A stretch of 64,000 nucleotides of DNA, taken from positions 68,217 through 132,216 of the forward strand of contig SVAS01000001.1 of assembly GCA_015059285.1 (NCBI GenBank), written 5' to 3'. This DNA is from Bacillota bacterium. Lineage in GTDB: Bacteria; Bacillota_I; Bacilli_A; RF39; UBA660. The notes under the pieces are model-generated. The model saw only the letters and a program-made list of their open reading frames with translations. It did no database searches and was not told the origin of the DNA. Below, one piece after another: positions 39 to 49,530 of the stretch; the first letter of the stretch is position 1, and every line of letters begins with the position of its first letter. The position numbers and the translations under genes are program-made.

Positions 39-395
39 ATGAAAGAAGAAGAATTAGAATATTTAGCAAACACATTATATGAACAAGAGCGTGAAAGAAT
101 TAATAATGCTCATTGGGCTGATTTAACGTTAGATGAAATGGAATTAATTGAAGATAAAAAGAAAAAGGTAGAGTATAAAAAAGAACAAAGAAAATTTCAT
201 ATTCATATTATTAATCCCTTAGCTAATTCAGTACCCCGAAAATTCAAATTTTCTGTACCCGATGAAAGTCTAACTTATCGTATTATGATGAATGATTATA
301 TGAAATTTTTCTATGGTAAGGGAATGACAAGAGACCAAATTATTGAAATGATGATTAAAAATAGAACTATTGTTAGTCGTAGAAAGAATAAATAG
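39..395 (+). CDS. hypothetical protein (118 aa, charged, Lys/Glu-rich)
   Basis: ORF with GGTGA RBS about 6 nt upstream and a TATAAT -10 box at positions 11-16; no recognisable motif. Confidence 0.4.
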   Translation: MKEEELEYLANTLYEQERERINNAHWADLTLDEMELIEDKKKKVEYKKEQRKFHIHIINPLANSVPRKFKFSVPDESLTYRIMMNDYMKFFYGKGMTRDQIIEMMIKNRTIVSRRKNK

Positions 396-6731: not shown

Positions 6732-6789
6732 TATAATAATAAATAATTATTTAAAAACGAAGAAAAAGAGTAGTAATAAGTAACTTTAT

Positions 6790-6948
6790 TTAAAGAGAGA
6801 AAGTGGTTGGTGAAAACTTTCATTAAAGTCTTATGAACTTGCTTTGGAGTTTGATCCGCTTGTAGCGTTAAAACATTTGAGTGCATAAGTATTATGAAAT
6901 AAGGTGGTACCACGGGTAAAACTCGTCCTTATACATAATACTTTTTTG
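6790..6948 (+). promoter_or_regulatory. T-box riboswitch leader (Leu specifier CUU) upstream of leuS
   Basis: Stem I start agagagaaagtggttggtgaaaac, T-box motif aaggtggtaccacgg at 6901-6915, downstream U-run; candidate specifier context gaaCUUg/gtCUUa. Confidence 0.8.
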
Positions 6949-10230: not shown

Positions 10231-11307
10231 ATGAAGAGAAAAGGATTTACCTTAATTGAACTGTTAGCAGTAATAGTAATACTAGCAATTATAGCGCTTA
10301 TTGCAGTGCCAGTTATTATGAACATTATCAGCAGTGCAAGAAAGAGTGCATTTGAGGATACAGCATATGGATTAATAAGTGCAGGGGAAATGTACTATGC
10401 AAACAATATATTAAGTGGAGCCACTTCTGATGATGTAGAATTTACAATTACAAATGGAGAATTTGTAGGAGAAAACAAATTAGAAGTAAAAGGTTCATTA
10501 CCAGCAAGTGGGAAAGTAAAGGTTACAAAAGATGGAAAAGTTGCAATTGCTGTAAATAATGGAAATTATTGTATAACAAAAGCAACAAGTGAAAGCAAAA
10601 TACAAACAGAAGAACTTGCAGGAGAATGTACTTATAGAAAGGTATTAAATCCAATAGTCACATCAACTGAGGCATGTATTACAAATGTAAATGAAATATG
10701 TGGTGATGATGTAATAAAAGCAGGAATCGCTGTTCAAGTAAAAGTAAATGATAAAGAAGAAGCAAAAACATTCTATGTGGTAAAAGATAATGCTACAACA
10801 GGAACATTAACATTAATCATGGATAGAAACATAGATCAAACAACAGTAGCGTGGATAACAAAAGAGGAATATTTAAGTGCAGGGGGAACAGAAGCAGAAT
10901 GGAGTTATGATGCTTATGGTTTTGGCACAGAAGGAAACTCTAATAAAGGTCCAATCACAGCGTTAAATTATTTAGAAAGCAAAACAGCAAATTGGACAAA
11001 CATTCATACTAAAAATTATACAGTTTCTGATGAACACGGAAAGTATATAGTAGAAAGAACAAACGCAAGGGCAAGAATGCTTTCAAAAACAGAAACATTG
11101 AGTTTAGGTTGTGTAATGTATGATGCAGGATGTCCAGTTTGGTTATATAATGGAATTGGATACTGGTTAAGTACTTCTGATACAGATTTCCCTATAACTG
11201 ATGCTTTAAATATGCCTAGTAGTGGTTATGTATCTGGTCTACCAATCTATCGCGATGATTATAGAGGTGTACGCCCAGTAATAGAAATACCTAAAACTAT
11301 AATATAA
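10231..11307 (+). CDS. type IV pilin-like protein paralog 1 (358 aa): prepilin N-terminus plus conserved C-terminal domain
   Basis: MKRKGFTLIELLAVIVILAIIALIAVP class III signal (G/F cleavage site, Glu at +5); C-terminal motifs TLIMDRNI, GPITALNYLE, ARARML, CPVWLY, GVRPVIEI. Confidence 0.85.
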   Translation: MKRKGFTLIELLAVIVILAIIALIAVPVIMNIISSARKSAFEDTAYGLISAGEMYYANNILSGATSDDVEFTITNGEFVGENKLEVKGSLPASGKVKVTKDGKVAIAVNNGNYCITKATSESKIQTEELAGECTYRKVLNPIVTSTEACITNVNEICGDDVIKAGIAVQVKVNDKEEAKTFYVVKDNATTGTLTLIMDRNIDQTTVAWITKEEYLSAGGTEAEWSYDAYGFGTEGNSNKGPITALNYLESKTANWTNIHTKNYTVSDEHGKYIVERTNARARMLSKTETLSLGCVMYDAGCPVWLYNGIGYWLSTSDTDFPITDALNMPSSGYVSGLPIYRDDYRGVRPVIEIPKTII

Positions 11308-20379: not shown

Positions 20380-21156
20380 ATGGATAATATTCAAAAATTA
20401 ACAGAATCATTTCAAGCTAATACAAAGATTGATGAAAATACTAAAGGAAACTTAGAATACTTAATAAGTGTTTTTCAAAAACGTTTTCCAAGCGTATCTT
20501 TAGATAATTTTTGTGAAAGATTAAAAACATTGCAAGTTGTACGTGGTAGTAAATATGTATTTGAAGAAGCTACTCAATATAATCCTAAAGATAATACCAT
20601 CGTAATTAATCAAGGATTATTACAACAAGAAAAAGTTGATGCACGTCATAGTATGATGAAAACTTTATTATCAATTATAACTGCTAAAGATTTGAGTTAT
20701 GGTTTTGCAACTAATAGAAGTTTAGAAGCTTTAAATGTAGGTTTTTGTGAAATCGTTGCAAATAACTTAGTTGGTAATGAAGGTGAGAGTAGTTATGAAG
20801 ATGAACAAATACTTGTAAATTCTATAGGTAGTTCTATTGGTTTAGAACCATTTATTGATGCGTTTTTCACTAATAATTCAGATTTACTTATAACAAAATT
20901 ATTTGCAAGATGTGGATCTTCTGTAGCTTTAGATAAATTTTTAAGTCAAGCAAACCATAATATGCATACAAGAAAGCAAATGGGTACTAGTAGATTATTT
21001 GCTTTACAACAAGATGCTTATTTAATGTTTGGTTCAGGTTATGATTTTATAATGAATAAAAGAACAATGGAAGAAACAATAGGTTTAAAATATCCAGAAA
21101 GTGAAAAATTAGAACAATTATCCAAAACAGATTTAGTTGAAACAATGAAAAGGTGA
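20380..21156 (+). CDS. hypothetical protein (258 aa)
   Basis: ORF immediately upstream of gltX with 4-nt spacing; no motif recognised. Confidence 0.4.
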   Translation: MDNIQKLTESFQANTKIDENTKGNLEYLISVFQKRFPSVSLDNFCERLKTLQVVRGSKYVFEEATQYNPKDNTIVINQGLLQQEKVDARHSMMKTLLSIITAKDLSYGFATNRSLEALNVGFCEIVANNLVGNEGESSYEDEQILVNSIGSSIGLEPFIDAFFTNNSDLLITKLFARCGSSVALDKFLSQANHNMHTRKQMGTSRLFALQQDAYLMFGSGYDFIMNKRTMEETIGLKYPESEKLEQLSKTDLVETMKR

Positions 21157-21160
21157 TAAA

Positions 21161-22585
21161 ATGAAAGTAAGAACAAGATTTGCACCAAGTCCTACAGGAT
21201 TTATGCATATAGGTAATTTAAGAACAGCTATATTTGAATACTTAATTGCTAAAAAAAATGATGGTGACTTTATTTTGAGAATTGAAGATACTGATCAAAC
21301 TCGTAAAGTAGATGGCGCTATTGATTTTATTTATAAAACATTAGAATTATGTAATTTTAAAATAGATGAAGGACCTAATAATGAAGGTAGTGTTGGTCCT
21401 TATATTCAAAGTGAAAGAAAAGATTTATATCGTAAATATGCTATGGAATTAGTTGATAAAGGTGCAGCGTACTTCTGCTTCTGTACCGAAGAAGATTTAG
21501 ACCTCATGAGAAAAGAAGCAGACGAAAAGAAAATAGCATTTTTATATGATGGTAGATGTAGCCATTTAACAAAAGAAGAAATAGAACAAAAAATTAATAA
21601 TGGTGAAAAATATGTTATAAGACAAAAAATGCCAAAAGAAGGAACAACTACAGTAAATGATTTAGTTTATGGCAATGTAGTAATAGAAAATAAAATATTA
21701 GATGATCAAATTCTTCTTAAATCTGACGGTTATCCAACTTATAACTTTGCTAATGTAGTAGATGATCATTTAATGAAAATAACTCATGTTATAAGAGGTC
21801 ATGAATATTTAGATCAAACAGCTAAATATAATTTACTTTATGAAGCATTTGGTTGGGAAGCACCAACTTATATCCATGTTGCTATGGTACTTGGAGAAGA
21901 TGGTACTAAGCTTTCTAAGCGTAATGGGGATGCATCATTTATGGATTTATATAATGATGGATACTTGCCAGAAGCAATCGTTAATTATTTAGTATTATTA
22001 GGATGGAGTCCAAGTACTAATCAAGAATTATTTACAATGGAAGAACTAATTAAAGAATTTGATCCAAGTAGAATTAGTAAATCTTCTAGTCAATACGATG
22101 TTAAAAAATTAAATTGGATGAATTCACATTATATAAAAAAATTAGATATAGATGCTTTATTAAAAATAACATTACCTCATTTAAAAGAAACTTACGATTT
22201 ATCTAATAAATCAGATGAATGGATAAAACACTTAGTATCTATTTATAAAGACCATATTAGTTATGGTAAAGAAATAGTAGCATGTACTGAACTTTTCTTT
22301 AAAGATGAAATTGATATTACAGGAGAAGCTTTAGAATTTATGAATGATGAAACTATTCCAAATACATTAAAAGTATTTAAAGAAGAAATAGAAAATATTA
22401 ATGATTGGACTGTAGAGAATATAAGTAATGCAATTAATAGTACTAAAGAAAAAGCAAATGCTAAAGGTAAGATGTTGTATATGCCGATAAGAATTAAAGT
22501 TAGTGGTATTATGCATGGGCCAGAACTTCCAGATACTATTTATTTACTAGGTAAAGAAACAATTCTTAATCGCTTAAGTAAATAA
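21161..22585 (+). CDS. gltX: glutamyl-tRNA synthetase
   Basis: RFAPSPTGFMHIGNLRTA (HIGH motif), KLSKRNG (KMSKS motif). Confidence 0.95.
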   Translation: MKVRTRFAPSPTGFMHIGNLRTAIFEYLIAKKNDGDFILRIEDTDQTRKVDGAIDFIYKTLELCNFKIDEGPNNEGSVGPYIQSERKDLYRKYAMELVDKGAAYFCFCTEEDLDLMRKEADEKKIAFLYDGRCSHLTKEEIEQKINNGEKYVIRQKMPKEGTTTVNDLVYGNVVIENKILDDQILLKSDGYPTYNFANVVDDHLMKITHVIRGHEYLDQTAKYNLLYEAFGWEAPTYIHVAMVLGEDGTKLSKRNGDASFMDLYNDGYLPEAIVNYLVLLGWSPSTNQELFTMEELIKEFDPSRISKSSSQYDVKKLNWMNSHYIKKLDIDALLKITLPHLKETYDLSNKSDEWIKHLVSIYKDHISYGKEIVACTELFFKDEIDITGEALEFMNDETIPNTLKVFKEEIENINDWTVENISNAINSTKEKANAKGKMLYMPIRIKVSGIMHGPELPDTIYLLGKETILNRLSK

Positions 22586-22692
22586 TTTACAAAAATAAAA
22601 TAATGTGCTAAAATGTATATAGATGAAGTTATCTTCATAAAATAAAAAAGGAATACTTAACTTCGCTTGTTGGGTATCTACCTAAAATTGGT

Positions 22693-22735
22693 GAGACACT
22701 TTATTACGAAAGTAATTGGGTGTCTATTTCTTTAT
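22693..22735 (+). terminator. probable gltX terminator, overlapping the 3' end of a convergent small ORF
   Basis: gagacac...gtgtct stem with nested hairpin, followed by atttctttat. Confidence 0.45.
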
Positions 22736-22813
22736 AATTAAAACTAACAATGTAATAATTAGTAAAGTGATAATAAAAAGAAGTATGAATACAAGTAAGT
22801 CTTGTTTTCTCAT
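22724..22813 (-). CDS. 29-aa hydrophobic peptide, candidate type I toxin (MRKQDLLVFILLFIITLLIITLLVLIIKK)
   Basis: Strong AGGAGGT RBS 7 nt upstream of ATG; single TM helix with a terminal KK; extended -10 TGGTATAAT on the minus strand at 22878-22886; 14-bp inverted repeats at 22669-22682 and 22843-22856 pair the mRNA 5' and 3' ends. Confidence 0.45.
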   Translation of the reverse strand: MRKQDLLVFILLFIITLLIITLLVLIIKK

Positions 22814-23029
22814 TATTATTACCTCCTCTCTATAAGAGATTTGGTAGACACCCAACAGTTAAATATTTCTAACAACATTATACCACTTGTCTATGTTCAA
22901 GTGAATTAAAATAGTTAATTATTTGTGAAAATATTAAAATACAAATTGGTATTTCAATATTTGTAAAATTGTGTTATAATATAAGCAGTTTAAAGGCAAA
23001 GACGAAGAAGTAGTAATAAAATTAATTAT

Positions 23030-23212
23030 TTAAAGAGAGTTAGTGGTTGGTGAAAACTAATAATAATATTTTATGAATTCATCTTCAGAGCTTTATATAC
23101 TAAATATATAACGGTAACGCGTTACAGTTTTAAGGCAAGTTGATAGACTTGTAAATTAAGGTGGTACCACGTAAACACGTCCTTATTGGATTGTGTTTTT
23201 TTTAATAATTAG
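23030..23212 (+). promoter_or_regulatory. T-box riboswitch leader (Phe specifier UUC) upstream of pheST
   Basis: agagagttagtggttggtgaaaac stem I start, gaaUUCa specifier context, T-box aaggtggtaccacg at 23158-23171, T-run; extended -10 TGTTATAAT at about 22968-22976. Confidence 0.8.
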
Positions 23213-23220
23213 GAGGATTT

Positions 23221-24264
23221 ATGAAAGATTTAGAACAAATTTTAATTGAAGTAAAGGAAAAATTAGAAAGTATTACAGATTTAAATGAACTAAATAATTT
23301 AAAAGTAGAATACTTAGGTAAAAAGGGTAGTATTAGTTTACTTTCTTCTAAAATTGCTACTTTACCAGTAGAAGAAAAGAAAATTTTTGGAGCAGAAATG
23401 AATAAGCTAAAAACAGAAGTAACTACTTTAATAGATGATAAAAGATTATTTTTGGAAAATAAAAAATTAGAAGAAAAATTAAAAAATGAAAAAATAGATG
23501 TTACTTTACCAGCAACCAAAATTCAAGTTGGTTCACCTAATATTTTAGAAAAAATAATTGAAGAAGTAGAAGAAGTATTTATGAGTATGGGTTATGATGT
23601 TGTAGATGGTCCTGAAATAGAAGAAGATCGTTATAATTTTGAACTTTTAAATATCCCTAAGGGACATCCTGCTAGAGATGCACAAGATACTTTCTATATT
23701 AAAGATGAAGAAATTTTATTACGTAGTCAAACTAGTCCAGTACAAGTTAGAACAATGCTAGATGCTGGTGGTGAAGAACCAATCAGAATGATTTGTCCTG
23801 GTAAAACCTATAGAAGAGATGATGATGATGCAACTCATTCACATCAATTTATGCAAATAGAAGGTCTTTTAGTTGATAAAGATATTAGTTTATCTGATTT
23901 AAAAGGAACTTTTGATACGATTGCTAAAAGATTATTTGGTGAAGATTGTGTTACTCGTTTTAGACCAAGTTATTATCAATTTACAGAACCTTCAGTAGAA
24001 ACAGATATTTCATGCTTTAAATGTAAAGGTGAAGGATGTAGTTTATGTAAAAACACTGGATGGATAACTGTATCTGGAGCTGGTATGGTTCATCCTAATG
24101 TTTTAAAAAATTGTGGTTATGATCCAAATATTTGGACAGGGTTTGCCTTTGGTTTTGGTGCTGAAAGACTAGCTATGCTTAAATATGGCATTAATGACAT
24201 AAGAACATTTTATAATACAGACTTAAGAGAACTTAAAGAATTTGATAGAAAGGATTGTGAATAA
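23221..24264 (+). CDS. pheS: phenylalanyl-tRNA synthetase alpha subunit
   Basis: class II motifs, FRPSYYQFTEPS, GFAFGFGAERLAML. Confidence 0.95.
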   Translation: MKDLEQILIEVKEKLESITDLNELNNLKVEYLGKKGSISLLSSKIATLPVEEKKIFGAEMNKLKTEVTTLIDDKRLFLENKKLEEKLKNEKIDVTLPATKIQVGSPNILEKIIEEVEEVFMSMGYDVVDGPEIEEDRYNFELLNIPKGHPARDAQDTFYIKDEEILLRSQTSPVQVRTMLDAGGEEPIRMICPGKTYRRDDDDATHSHQFMQIEGLLVDKDISLSDLKGTFDTIAKRLFGEDCVTRFRPSYYQFTEPSVETDISCFKCKGEGCSLCKNTGWITVSGAGMVHPNVLKNCGYDPNIWTGFAFGFGAERLAMLKYGINDIRTFYNTDLRELKEFDRKDCE

Positions 24265-26756: not shown

Positions 26757-27863
26757 ATGAAGAAAAAAGGTTTCACGTTAATTGAACTATTAGCAGTAAT
26801 AGTAATACTAGCAATAATAGCGCTTATAGCAGTACCAGTAATAATGAATATTATAAGTAGTGCAAGAAAGAGCTCGTTTGAGGATACTGCATATGGAATA
26901 ATTAGTGCCGGTGAATTATACTATGCTGAAAAGTTGCTTGAACCAAATGGAATGACTAGTGATGCAGAATTTACATTTACAAATGGAAGAGTTACTCCAA
27001 CAGGATTAAATGTAAAAGGTTCATTACCAAAAAGTGGTTCAATGGTAGTAACAAAAGAAGGAAAAATAGCAATCGCAATAACTAATGGAGAATTATGTAT
27101 AACAAAAGGATATGATGATAGCAAAATAGAAACATTAGAAGAATTTGAAAGTTGTGACTTACCAGCAAAAAAATTAAGTGAGCTTGTAAAAACAAATGAT
27201 TTTGCGGAAAGTGTAGATGCGTGTGCGACGAGCGGAACATGTTCATCAGGAACGCCATTTGCAATCGAAGTAGCCCCTGGAAATATTCAAAATTTCTATG
27301 TAATCAGTGATGTAAATAATGTAGTAACACTAATTATGGATAGAAACATTGGTAATACAGTGGCTTGGATTACTCAAGGTGATTATAATGACGATGATTC
27401 TTGGGAAGTTTGTTATGAAGAAGGTACTATAGAAGAGTGGTGTGAATATGGAAATAGTAATAAAGGACCAATAACAGCATTAAATTACTTAGAAATACAA
27501 ACATCAGGATGGACAAATATAGAGGCAAAGAATTACACATTAACAGATGATAATACAACACCAAAATACACAATTGAAAGAACAGGAGCTAGAGCAAGAA
27601 TGTTAACCAAAACAGAAGCGTTAGCAGTAGGATGTAGTGGATGGTATGACGGAGATGAAGCTACATGTCCAGACTGGTTATATGGTAATTTAGATGATAA
27701 TGCAGTTCCTTGGGGTTACTGGACAAGTTTTGCTGATGCGGACACTACTCACCTCGTTTGGTTTGTAGAAAATGATGGTTCTATGAACTTAACCGACCCG
27801 GAATATGGCTACTATGATGGCTACTACTATGGTGTGCGCCCAGTTATTGAAGTTTCAAAATAA
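26757..27863 (+). CDS. type IV pilin-like protein paralog 2 (368 aa)
   Basis: MKKKGFTLIELLAVIVILAIIALIAVP; C-terminal motifs TLIMDRNIGNTVAW, NSNKGPITALNYLE, GARARMLTKTE, CPDWLYGNL, YGVRPVIEVSK. Confidence 0.85.
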   Translation: MKKKGFTLIELLAVIVILAIIALIAVPVIMNIISSARKSSFEDTAYGIISAGELYYAEKLLEPNGMTSDAEFTFTNGRVTPTGLNVKGSLPKSGSMVVTKEGKIAIAITNGELCITKGYDDSKIETLEEFESCDLPAKKLSELVKTNDFAESVDACATSGTCSSGTPFAIEVAPGNIQNFYVISDVNNVVTLIMDRNIGNTVAWITQGDYNDDDSWEVCYEEGTIEEWCEYGNSNKGPITALNYLEIQTSGWTNIEAKNYTLTDDNTTPKYTIERTGARARMLTKTEALAVGCSGWYDGDEATCPDWLYGNLDDNAVPWGYWTSFADADTTHLVWFVENDGSMNLTDPEYGYYDGYYYGVRPVIEVSK

Positions 27864-35800: not shown

Positions 35801-36259
35801 ATGGAGAAATTTAATCGAACACTTCGTGGCTATGATCCAGAAGAAGTAAATGCTTTTGTAGATCAAGTCATTGGCCAAGTTGAAAAGATGGTTAGTGAAG
35901 GTAAACTTAAAGATGCTAAAATAAAAGAACTAAAGTCTTTAGAAGTAGAAAATGTACGTTTAAAAGAAAAAATTGCACAATATGAACGTATGGAAGGAAC
36001 TTTAAATAAAGCTATATTAATGGCCCAAAAGACTTCTGATCAAATAAAGACTAATGCTCATAGAGAAAGTGAAATTATTTTAGAAGATGCTAAACGAAAT
36101 GCTAGTCGTATTGTTAATGAAGCTTTACTTAGAGCTGAAAAAACAGAGATGGAAGCAAATATGTTAAAACGTAATATTAATATATTTAAACGTCGTTTAA
36201 GAAGTATTATCGAACAACAACTTGAAATGGTTAATGATATTGAAAAAGTAGATTTTTAA
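35801..36259 (+). CDS. divIVA: DivIVA-domain protein
   Basis: FNRTLRGYDPEEVNAFVDQV N-terminal DivIVA motif, coiled coil. Confidence 0.8.
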   Translation: MEKFNRTLRGYDPEEVNAFVDQVIGQVEKMVSEGKLKDAKIKELKSLEVENVRLKEKIAQYERMEGTLNKAILMAQKTSDQIKTNAHRESEIILEDAKRNASRIVNEALLRAEKTEMEANMLKRNINIFKRRLRSIIEQQLEMVNDIEKVDF

Positions 36260-36294
36260 AACAGATGATAGAGACGATATACAAATTAGTCTTG

Positions 36295-36462
36295 CTAGAG
36301 AGTTAGTGGTTGGTGGAAACTAATGAAGAAGGTTGTATATAGATCACTCTAGATGTTTCTAATATAGAACGGTGACGCGTTATAGTTTTGAGTGTATAAT
36401 TTTTATAAAATAAGGTGGTACCGCGGGTAAAACTCGTCCTTAATTGGATGAGTTTTTTTGTT
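36295..36462 (+). promoter_or_regulatory. T-box riboswitch leader (Ile specifier AUC) upstream of ileS
   Basis: agagagttagtggttggtggaaac stem I start, tagAUCa specifier context, T-box aaggtggtaccgcgg, terminator actcgtcc/ggatgagt plus U7. Confidence 0.85.
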
Positions 36463-48193: not shown

Positions 48194-49336
48194 ATGAAAA
48201 TACTTAAAAAAGATAATCAAGAACTTGACGTAAAAAAAATTAATGAAGTTGTTGGAGTGTCTAAAAGGATTCTTAAAATAGCTTATATTTTGTTTATTGT
48301 TTTAGCTATCTATGTTTTTATTAAGGTAAGCAAAGAACTAAATATAATGAATTTTTTAATAACACTTTTGAAAATAGTTTCACCACTATTTATTGGTATT
48401 GTTATAGCATGGCTATTTAATCCGATTGTTACATATTTACAAAAAAAAGGTATGAGAAGAGGTTTAGGAGCAACACTTTCATATTTTGCATTAGTTGGTT
48501 TATTAACTATTGTAATTTGGTCTATAGTGCCAACCTTATCTGAACAAATAAATGATTTTGCTGGTATGATACCACAATTATTCGATACTATAAAGGAGTG
48601 GATTGATACTATTTTTGAAGGATTAAATAATATTGAAAGTTTTGATGCTCTTGCTATCAAATCCGATTTATTTAAAGCCATTGAAGAATTTGGGGTTAAT
48701 TTAACTAATTCACTTCCAACGATGGTAGTTAATATTATTAGTTCATTGTTTTCAGGACTTGGTACAATTTTAATTGGGTTAGTGATAGGATTTTATTTAT
48801 TAATTAGTGTTGATGGAACTGATAATCTAATTAATTTATTACCTAAGAAGATGCAAGAGACAACTCGTGATTTATTAACTGAAATAGATGGTTCTTTTAG
48901 AAGTTTTGTTCAAGGGGCGCTTTTAGATTCAACATTCGTATTTATTATTACATCTATTGGATTTTCTTTAATAGGATTAAAAGCACCACTATTCTTTGGA
49001 CTTTTCTGTGGAATTACTAATGTTATTCCATATGCAGGACCTTATATAGGTGGGGCACCTGCTGTTATAGTAGGTTTTTCACAAGGAATTCCAACAGGAA
49101 TATTAACTTTAGTGGTAATTGTTTTAATTCAATTTTTAGAAGGTAATTTCTTACAACCTTTAATAATGAGTAAAACAACTAAATTACATCCTGTTACAAT
49201 CATGTTAGGTCTTTTAGTCTTTGGTTATTTCTGGGGAATTATTGGTATGGTTATTTCAACTCCAATAATTGCTGCTTCTAAAGCAATTTTGATGTTTTTA
49301 GACGAAAAATATGATATACTATCATTTAGTGATTAA
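48194..49336 (+). CDS. AI-2E family transporter (UPF0118/PerM)
   Basis: 8 TM topology and conserved Gly-rich C-terminal half typical of AI-2E. Confidence 0.7.
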   Translation: MKILKKDNQELDVKKINEVVGVSKRILKIAYILFIVLAIYVFIKVSKELNIMNFLITLLKIVSPLFIGIVIAWLFNPIVTYLQKKGMRRGLGATLSYFALVGLLTIVIWSIVPTLSEQINDFAGMIPQLFDTIKEWIDTIFEGLNNIESFDALAIKSDLFKAIEEFGVNLTNSLPTMVVNIISSLFSGLGTILIGLVIGFYLLISVDGTDNLINLLPKKMQETTRDLLTEIDGSFRSFVQGALLDSTFVFIITSIGFSLIGLKAPLFFGLFCGITNVIPYAGPYIGGAPAVIVGFSQGIPTGILTLVVIVLIQFLEGNFLQPLIMSKTTKLHPVTIMLGLLVFGYFWGIIGMVISTPIIAASKAILMFLDEKYDILSFSD

Positions 49337-49371
49337 AGCGATGAAGAAAGAAAGTAGAATAATTTGTTTTT

Positions 49372-49530
49372 AAAGAGAGTTAGTGGTTGGTGGAAACTAA
49401 TAAATAAATTATTTGAAAGCTACTTTCTGAGTATAGTAAAAACTATCGGAAAAATCCGTTATCAAAATTAAGAACAAATTAGGATGGTACCACGGTTTTT
49501 TCGTTCCTAGAAAATAACCGTGGTTTTTTT
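49372..49530 (+). promoter_or_regulatory. T-box riboswitch leader (Ala specifier GCU) upstream of the dNMP-kinase-like/cmk/alaS operon
   Basis: agagagttagtggttggtggaaac, gaaaGCUa specifier context at 49429-49431, T-box ggatggtaccacgg, terminator ccacggtt...aaccgtgg plus U7. Confidence 0.85.

Follow-up and report, generated by a model that had tools for sequence, protein, structure and literature searches.

A candidate type I toxin-antitoxin-like module, conserved as a small-peptide and antisense-RNA gene pair, between gltX and the pheS T-box of an uncultured Bacillota bacterium

What lies between gltX and the T-box leader of pheS in the genome of an uncultured Bacillota bacterium? In the DNA analyzed here, a stretch of 64,000 nucleotides (nt) from contig SVAS01000001.1 with 26% G+C (the window), gltX occupies 21161-22585 and the pheS T-box, identified by Rfam at gathering level, occupies 22990-23187. 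The segment at 22586-22965, which we term the cassette, has no counterpart at this position in the two closest syntenic species. A reading made earlier from the DNA letters alone (the sequence-only reading) had proposed a candidate type I toxin-antitoxin locus here, and as far as sequence goes that proposal is supported, by a conserved open reading frame (ORF), covarying RNAs, insertion relative to sister species and tandem copies at other sites. We regard it as very likely that the cassette is a real pair of genes, one for a small protein and one for an antisense RNA. Probably it is a type I toxin-antitoxin-like module belonging to a family not described before, and with the same probability its peptide is toxic and under the control of the antisense RNA. 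Comparison of homologues shows conservation of, and selection on, the ORF, the two promoters and the structures of the two RNAs. That the locus is transcribed, that the peptide is toxic, that the antisense RNA neutralizes it and which nuclease takes part are things that we infer.

The putative toxin gene is on the minus strand. Its promoter (22877-22905) has the form TTCACT-17 nt-TG-n-TATAAT, matching the consensus at 10 of 12 positions with an upstream TG in addition. The extended -10 element TGGTATAAT had been recognized before, placed one base away from its correct position of 22885-22877. The transcript would start close to 22870, and in family members (described below) the -35/-10 pair is found at the same distance from the leader. 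As the sequence-only reading had it, a strong Shine-Dalgarno (SD) sequence, GGAGG at 22826-22822, stands before a 29-codon ORF (22813-22724 including the stop codon), with a spacing of 8 nt to the ATG. The 29-aa product MRKQDLLVFILLFIITLLIITLLVLIIKK has a hydrophobic core of 22 residues and should form a single membrane helix. ORFs of 15-60 aa with a strong SD at proper spacing are rare, there being three in the 64 kb on both strands; one is that for MRKQDLLVFILLFIITLLIITLLVLIIKK, and another is presumably related to ribosomal protein L28, from its sequence as recognized by eye. A consensus scan of 22000-23400 gave exactly two promoters with 10 of 12 matches, these being that on the minus strand (22905..22877) and one on the plus strand (22586..22614). 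The total of promoter-like matches in that interval is not above that of shuffled sequences.

The predicted toxin mRNA is about 230 nt in length (22639-22870, minus), delimited by its fold and by an nhmmer match to the family profile (22873-22644, E = 5e-37). Folding of the RNA had been suggested as a check on the locus. The 242-nt RNA from 22871 to 22630 gives -62.8 kcal/mol, compared with -37.4 +/- 4.0 for shuffled sequences (z = -6.3, with none of 200 shuffles equal to it). The minimum-energy fold contains a 27-bp helix that we term P1, in which the 5′ end of the transcript (22870-22843) is paired with nucleotides 22682-22649, which precede U6-A-U4 (22649-22639). The 5′ arm (22843-22870, minus) holds the 5′ box GUUGGGUGUCUACC (22856-22843) and covaries across alleles and family; the 3′ arm (22649-22682, minus) holds the 3′ box GGUAGAUACCCAAC (22682-22669). 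The inverted repeats that had been described as 14 bp are present and longer: 22668-22685 is 89% complementary to 22840-22857 over 18 nt, and next to it lies a 14-nt pair (22649-22662 with 22857-22870). The stop codon is overlapped by a third box related to these, TTGGGTGTCTA (22716-22726). The 5′ box can pair with this stop-codon box as well, and truncated transcripts are predicted to adopt that pairing. The 3′ arm of P1 can alternatively fold on itself as a local, weak terminator hairpin, the family counterpart of which is ACAUUCA...UGAAUGU plus a U-run, and there is another hairpin at the stop codon (22725-22694).

Thermodynamic prediction thus gives a structured mRNA in which the ribosome-binding site is occluded. 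In the window this is achieved by a local leader hairpin (22821-22840, minus), in which UCUCUU pairs with the SD and UCUCU-GAGAG is an alternative pairing; in most relatives an anti-SD lies inside the ORF. The pairing of 5′ and 3′ ends proposed in the sequence-only reading is upheld, and is conserved with compensatory changes, but the long-range helix does not itself include the ribosome-binding site as had been supposed.

On the plus strand the promoter of the antisense RNA, the putative antitoxin, lies at 22586-22614 (TTTACA-17 nt-TG-c-TAAAAT; 10 of 12 matches with the TG), so placed that its first base follows the gltX stop codon. Its extended -10 element TGCTAAAAT, at 22606-22614, had also been seen before and misplaced by one base. 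The predicted RNA of about 115 nt (22621-22736, plus) comprises a first stem-loop (22623-22638), an A-rich linker, a second stem-loop (22653-22677) and a terminator (22694-22736) made of a hairpin at 22694-22725 with a U-rich tract, which extends over the stop codon of the ORF and the codons just before it. When folded from 22620 to 22745 (z = -4.8), the plus-strand RNA forms the two stem-loops and the 13-bp hairpin, followed by AUUUCUUUAUAAU. It is complementary to about 95 nt at the 3′ end of the toxin mRNA, and at the level of sequence there is a predicted gene for a small antisense RNA directed against that mRNA. The U-tract of the antisense terminator is the complement of the toxin ATA AAA AAA TGA, so that the C-terminal Lys-Lys is constrained on both strands. 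This explains the two lysines in part; in a second subfamily of peptides the U-tract is placed after the stop codon and the terminal lysines are lacking.

A diverged cassette exists at the same gltX site in loci L088-L091, where the GltX protein (P0122, a distinct sequence) aligns with that of the window at 100% identity. On this comparison the two cassettes are alleles within one species. The flanks, including both promoters, are nearly identical and the core has diverged. The peptide of allele 2 is MKNKTFIIKVLKFITIILFLLIILIVVIKK. The paired boxes change jointly, from GUUGGGUGUCUACC and GGUAGAUACCCAAC in the window to GUUGAGUGUCUACC and GGUAGACAUUCAAC in allele 2. The outer helix has a wholly different sequence with its complementarity kept. 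The stop-codon hairpin of allele 2 is a perfect 11-bp stem, and its RNA folds (-77 kcal/mol, z = -9.3) with the same architecture as that of the window. In the allele 2 leader (e.g. L088 4181-4200, minus) an 8-nt duplication, CTTATACY, adds a second CUCUU-like anti-SD, and L088 and L089 are one base apart within this duplication. An identical GltX was found on 23 metagenome contigs (e.g. JGI 3300018493), and the intergenic region is identical in the three contigs aligned.

A leader pattern common to both alleles, GTCTACCAAATCTC...GAGGAGG, was scanned over metagenome contigs to collect the family. This gave 40 loci, 39 of them genuine, from gut and rumen metagenomes; L094, a GC-rich chance match, was excluded. 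A profile search of the collected loci found further diverged copies, in tandem or nearby on one contig, at L115 (2738-2974 and 3096-3328), L105 (3857-4088 and 4234-4459) and L118 (9724-9963 and 10894-11121), and a remnant, L126. The second copy at both L105 and L118 is of the other subfamily, in which the peptides (MNKKDFLIGVLLIIILLLVLLLFIVLI and MKKKDILISSLIIIIFLLLFLLFIVLI) have 27 aa ending in VLI and there is a matching box set of its own, based on GUUGGGUGGAGCC. The window allele is a divergent member of the family (126 bits, E = 5e-37 to the family profile), with an N-terminus that resembles the second subfamily. Paralogous copies, which it had been suggested to look for in this genome, are absent from the 64-kb window.

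The homologous peptides are 27-31 aa long, with exactly 30 codons in 27 of 31 distinct sequences. In 24 distinct ORF sequences the variable sites number 20, 15 and 27 at codon positions 1, 2 and 3, and the mean proportions of synonymous (pS) and nonsynonymous (pN) differences are 0.42 and 0.16, a pN/pS of 0.38. Replacements are conservative (I/V/L and K/R), and multi-step synonymous changes occur; Arg12 is encoded by CGC, CGA, AGA or AGG, and Leu11 by TTA, CTA, CTT or CTC. These comparisons show purifying selection on the ORF. Damage is apparent in a few copies. L112 has an ATA start, L113 has a 1-nt deletion in an A-run that extends the C-terminus, and L103 has an 18-nt in-frame deletion that leaves 24 aa. 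The remnant L126 (11859-11970) is promoterless and adjoins tRNA-Leu.

These data bear on one alternative, that the segment is nothing other than the terminator region of gltX, with a chance ORF in AT-rich DNA and incidental inverted repeats. Hydrophobic chance ORFs are common at 26% G+C, and the hairpin at 22694-22725 is the sole terminator-like structure 3′ of gltX in the window. The number of repeats is also unremarkable taken alone, in that three 14-mer matches with up to three mismatches were found where 1.07 are expected, and 12 of 100 shuffles reach three. Yet the same cassette is present 3′ of the transfer-messenger RNA (tmRNA) gene, several tRNA genes, tyrS, uvrA and other genes, the ORF keeps its length and sequence amid synonymous change, and the sister species end or continue gltX without the cassette. 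The comparative data already contradict a chance origin, and we give it hardly any credence.

The RNA structures are conserved by the same comparison. Across 31 sequences RNAalifold recovered the 5′-3′ helix, a UCUC/GAGA leader stem and the stop-codon hairpin, and paired the SD and start region with codons 17-22, which contain an internal CUCC anti-SD. In the consensus mRNA structure 97.5% of cells are standard pairs, compared with 40-49% when the partners are slid by 1-3 columns. Eight pairs (26 cells) are changed on both sides, where shuffles give 3.5 (5.3 cells) and none of 500 is as high, with the proviso that the kinship of the family sequences inflates such shuffle-based statistics. Alignment columns 32-44 and 58-66 are invariant as the search pattern, and the covariation stems from other columns. 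Conservation of the repeats in relatives, a point on which the sequence-only reading could have failed, is thus found, with the boxes covarying across alleles and family.

The antisense unit was read in those family sequences that reach far enough downstream. Its promoter is conserved in position, with a TTGACA-like -35, a 17-nt spacer and TGnTATTAT. The 5′ stem-loop of the RNA covaries (ATGAAG...CTTCAT or GCAAG...CTTGC), and is followed by an A-rich linker, a stem-loop of 9-11 bp, a 13-bp terminator hairpin and AUUUUUUUAU (U7). Conservation of the promoter, the structure of the RNA and the terminator extends to about 25 distinct homologues, which bears out the cis-antisense unit that had been proposed. 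Of 24 pairs in the antisense consensus 8 are changed on both sides. Several pairs are U.G in the antisense RNA, and the same positions on the toxin strand would be C-A mismatches. In all 27 of the 27 homologues compared the antisense strand is stabler than its reverse complement (-32.3 and -25.7 kcal/mol respectively).

Was the cassette gained at the gltX site? Among the nearest genomes, which are metagenome-assembled genomes of uncultured 'Bacilli' or 'Tenericutes' from goat, rabbit and human gut, the order gltX-T-box-pheS is retained only in L006 (GltX 88% identical) and L009 (74%). Each aligns to the window with a single gap of about 380 nt (22586-22965), and since both are without this segment the cassette is an insertion or a deletion. 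On the alignments it is an insertion relative to these sister species.

Presence in one species and absence from another, together with the many insertion sites and a resolvase that is nearby at one locus, could point to a small non-autonomous mobile element resembling a miniature inverted-repeat transposable element, with the repeats as transposition ends and the ORF and promoters as passengers. However, the inverted repeats are internal to the transcribed unit and not at the ends of the cassette, and they covary so as to preserve RNA pairing, including changes that tolerate G.U. The ends of the cassette are the two promoters, and the flanks diverge beyond them. No target-site duplication was noticed on reading the gltX junctions, although no systematic search was made. 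Nor was the unit found in collections of viruses, phages or plasmids. The peptide-pattern scan of viral contigs gave 207 pattern matches, none of which was confirmed, and the family was not found there. A search of viral contigs and of 185,579 species genomes for two 11-nt boxes at 105-135 nt from each other gave nothing. BLAST of the window locus against phages and plasmids gave chance matches only, and a mainstream family member gave nothing relevant in the same collections. One match, to Enterococcus faecium, falls inside a long annotated gene for a hypothetical protein and was rejected. We consider a mobile element of this kind very improbable.

Copies with the toxin gene convergent are found 3′ of the tmRNA gene in L116 (2341-2719), L123 (833-1196) and the L096 group. 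Others lie 3′ of genes for tRNA-Thr, -Arg, -Glu, -Met, -Ala and -Lys (the tRNA-adjacent copies including L112, L113, L127, L129, L130 and L132), 3′ of tyrS opposite rpsD, 3′ of uvrA, and beside aspS, dnaE and a class I aminoacyl-tRNA synthetase gene. In most copies the antisense gene is co-directional with the upstream gene and starts 0-100 nt from its end. The -35 of the antisense promoter abuts or overlaps the stop codon at gltX, tyrS, an ABC-ATPase gene and two other, unannotated, protein genes, which leaves a terminator no space there, and at the uvrA locus the gap is below 20 nt; this makes at least five types of locus besides that of the window. In the tRNA and tmRNA contexts of L113, L116, L098 and L130 the -35 is inside a terminator-like hairpin, the U-run of which forms the promoter spacer. 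Placement of the promoter against a stop codon is not universal in the family.

At gltX there is no room for a terminator between the stop codon and the antisense promoter, so gltX transcripts should end at the antisense terminator and carry antitoxin sequence. This raises the speculative and rather unlikely possibility that repression of the toxin is wired to transcription of the upstream housekeeping gene. The upstream mRNA would then run through the antisense unit, have the complete antitoxin sequence as its 3′ untranslated region (UTR) and end at the antitoxin terminator. If this were true, the cassette would be a sensor, freeing a membrane toxin once expression of a translation-apparatus gene collapses.

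A further control is suggested by the motif GAACnnnnGTTT, which lies in the spacer that separates the two elements of the toxin promoter, some 20 nt 5′ of the -10. It is exact in L107, L113 and L116, with near matches at the same promoter position in L098, L118, L119, L097/L106 and L124. It is the form of the LexA box reported for clostridia (PMC4234289), and from this similarity a subset of the toxins may be SOS-induced, that is freed on DNA damage via LexA-like boxes. For the toxin promoter of the window itself a Cheo/LexA box was considered and dropped, as only a GAAC half-site is present there. Unrelated to the cassette, L113 also has a sub-threshold Rfam match at 79-173 (minus) to the Clostridioides difficile small RNA n00280 (45.8 bits where 65.2 is required, E = 8e-5).

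How does the cassette compare with known type I systems? By analogy it is closest in design to bsrG/SR4 of the Bacillus subtilis prophage SPbeta, a resemblance of design and not of homology. In bsrG nt 1-35 pair with nt 232-262 in a helix also named P1, from which stem-loops branch off, with the SD within a stem; once SR4 is bound at the 3′ end the 5′ arm is released and the SD stem becomes longer, and decay that depends on RNase III is promoted (PMC3834814). The cassette shares with it a small hydrophobic peptide having a lysine-rich C-terminus, a long 5′-3′ helix, an SD held in a stem and a convergent antisense RNA overlapping the 3′ end, and the Rfam BsrG model picks out the helix GGGUGUCU...AGACaCCC that encloses the ORF. 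In contrast, the peptides are unrelated in sequence, and the RNAs are of 294 and 180 nt in bsrG/SR4 and about 230 and 115 nt in the cassette. In the cassette the closing helix reaches exactly to the terminator U-run and is in competition with the terminator hairpin, and the cassette is chromosomal at housekeeping intergenic sites whereas bsrG/SR4 is borne on a prophage.

The layout with a 3′-overlapping antisense RNA has been described for Gram-positive type I families, and in txpA/RatA, bsrE/SR5 and yonT/SR6 the antisense gene is likewise on the 3′ side, overlapping the end of the ORF (PMC8594479). Between those systems and the cassette no similarity of RNA or peptide was detected, and the cassette peptide is shorter (27-31 aa). 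With fst/RNAII of the Enterococcus par locus the cassette has in common a single-helix peptide of about 30 aa, a Gram-positive host, convergent transcription and a shared terminator region. The Fst RNAs interact via 5′ direct repeats outside the overlap (PMC8594479); none was noticed in the cassette, where no search of the family RNAs for such repeats was made. Scans of Pfam and NCBIfam with E up to 10 gave no match to the Fst family. The claim that the peptide is Fst/TxpA/BsrG-like therefore holds for its single hydrophobic helix, and fails for sequence membership in any of the three. Lastly, in hok/Sok and aapA1/IsoA1, as predicted here, pairing of the distant 5′ and 3′ ends keeps the full-length mRNA inert. 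Other pairings are possibly used during transcription, for which the 5′ box of the cassette has the stop-codon box as a partner. In those systems, by contrast, the antisense RNA targets the 5′ or translation-initiation region and activation is by 3′ trimming, neither of which is indicated in the cassette.

A mechanism can be proposed on the bsrG/SR4 analogy. The minus-strand sigma-70 promoter would direct synthesis of an mRNA of about 230 nt coding for the 29-aa membrane peptide. The mRNA would close on itself, its first 27 nt pairing with the last nucleotides ahead of the terminator U-run in place of the terminator hairpin. The 3′ arm of P1 also serves as the terminator hairpin of the toxin gene, one half of which the 5′ end has to displace once transcription has terminated. 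The SD would be buried in the leader hairpin for the window allele or against the anti-SD within the ORF in most relatives, so that the self-closed, full-length mRNA is predicted to be stable and poorly translated. The convergent plus-strand promoter would give the RNA of about 115 nt with three stem-loops. Its complementarity to the mRNA is perfect over the final codons and the 3′ UTR, the 3′ arm of P1 among them. This RNA would span both partner boxes, and its second stem-loop would be complementary to a single-stranded bulge in the closing helix. Pairing would open the closing helix, form a long duplex for RNase III and block synthesis of the peptide. With the SD predicted to be mostly paired in every state, we infer that the antisense RNA acts mainly via duplex formation and decay. 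On a shortage of antisense RNA the peptide would enter the membrane, leading to arrest or death of the cell.

A number of observations weigh against interpreting the cassette as a toxin-antitoxin module. The leader is almost invariant across the family, partly by construction because it served as the search pattern, and the kinship noted above lessens the force of the covariation statistics. A clear antisense-induced switch at the SD is unsupported by the folding models, which give the SD a mean unpaired probability of 0.10 in RNA of full length and of 0.16 when the 3′ region is blocked. Binding of the antisense RNA is thus not predicted to alter accessibility clearly, which leaves the translational side of the mechanism weak. 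By sequence comparison the peptide is unmatched by any known toxin family. Pfam, NCBIfam, PADLOC and PHROGs contain no meaningful match for the window peptide or its relatives. Among curated toxin profiles (Pfam/NCBIfam, E up to 10) the best was the NCBIfam model of Hok with 9.3 bits against a cut-off of 73 (E = 1), with nothing else. The window allele scores 17.3 bits against the BsrG model (RF01412), where the gathering score is 55 (E = 0.11), and so falls outside that family; in nine loci of mainstream relatives the model gave no match at E up to 1. Rfam over 22400-23300 with E up to 10 gave only the T-box leader and this sub-threshold BsrG, and over the family loci nothing that covers the cassette. 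The decayed copies fit toxin-antitoxin loci, but they fit a dispensable gene too.

In other protein searches phmmer with the 30-aa version found no match among 1.84 billion representatives, and exact look-up of 10 family peptides in a collection of 15 billion proteins found none present; the ORF is uncalled by gene callers on the source contigs. A 43-aa extended frame has no exact-match contig and no homologue.

Could the gene instead encode a conserved small membrane protein that is not a toxin? Its role might be physiological, such as modulation of a transporter or a factor in sporulation or the envelope, with the cis-antisense RNA merely tuning its level. Purifying selection would be expected of any functional small protein, the sequence is unrelated to known toxins, and at most loci the neighbors are housekeeping genes and not mobile elements. 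Against this, sister species lack the cassette and one species has two alleles of it, it occurs at unrelated scattered sites with tandem and decayed copies, and the mRNA is heavily self-closed with its SD occluded. This reading is disfavored because absence from sister species, scatter, allelism and a self-closed mRNA are common traits of type I toxin loci that one would not usually meet in a small housekeeping protein, and we think it unlikely, if deserving of some weight. The toxin-antitoxin-like module is the interpretation that we prefer.

The family is a well-delimited new one from uncultured, very AT-rich Bacilli of gut and rumen, and if that interpretation is right it would add to the unannotated lethal or membrane-active small genes of gut microbes. 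Comparative data suffice to read its whole regulatory layout, namely the promoters, the flush 5′-3′ helix competing with the terminator, the occlusion of the SD and the overlap of Lys-Lys with the U-tract. The roughly 40 natural variants, with two alleles at one site, are a ready compensatory-mutation series for control by mRNA folding.

The surroundings offer some further observations. A promoter-like TTGTAA...TATAAT at about 22960-22985, just 5′ of the pheS T-box, is partly within the inserted segment, so that the pheST promoter may have been brought in, or else displaced, by the insertion. The 64 kb contain four T-box leaders, all on the plus strand, at 6751-6933, 22990-23187, 36256-36444 and 49332-49511. 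Directly 5′ of gltX is an ORF of 258 aa (20380-21156) with no Pfam match on record, and at the equivalent position relatives have ORFs of 258-269 aa that are likewise without one. Finally, the ORF at 26757-27863 has a type IV pilin-like N-terminus, MKKKGFTLIELLAVIVILAIIALIAVPV, and the same motif is found again near 10264-10329.

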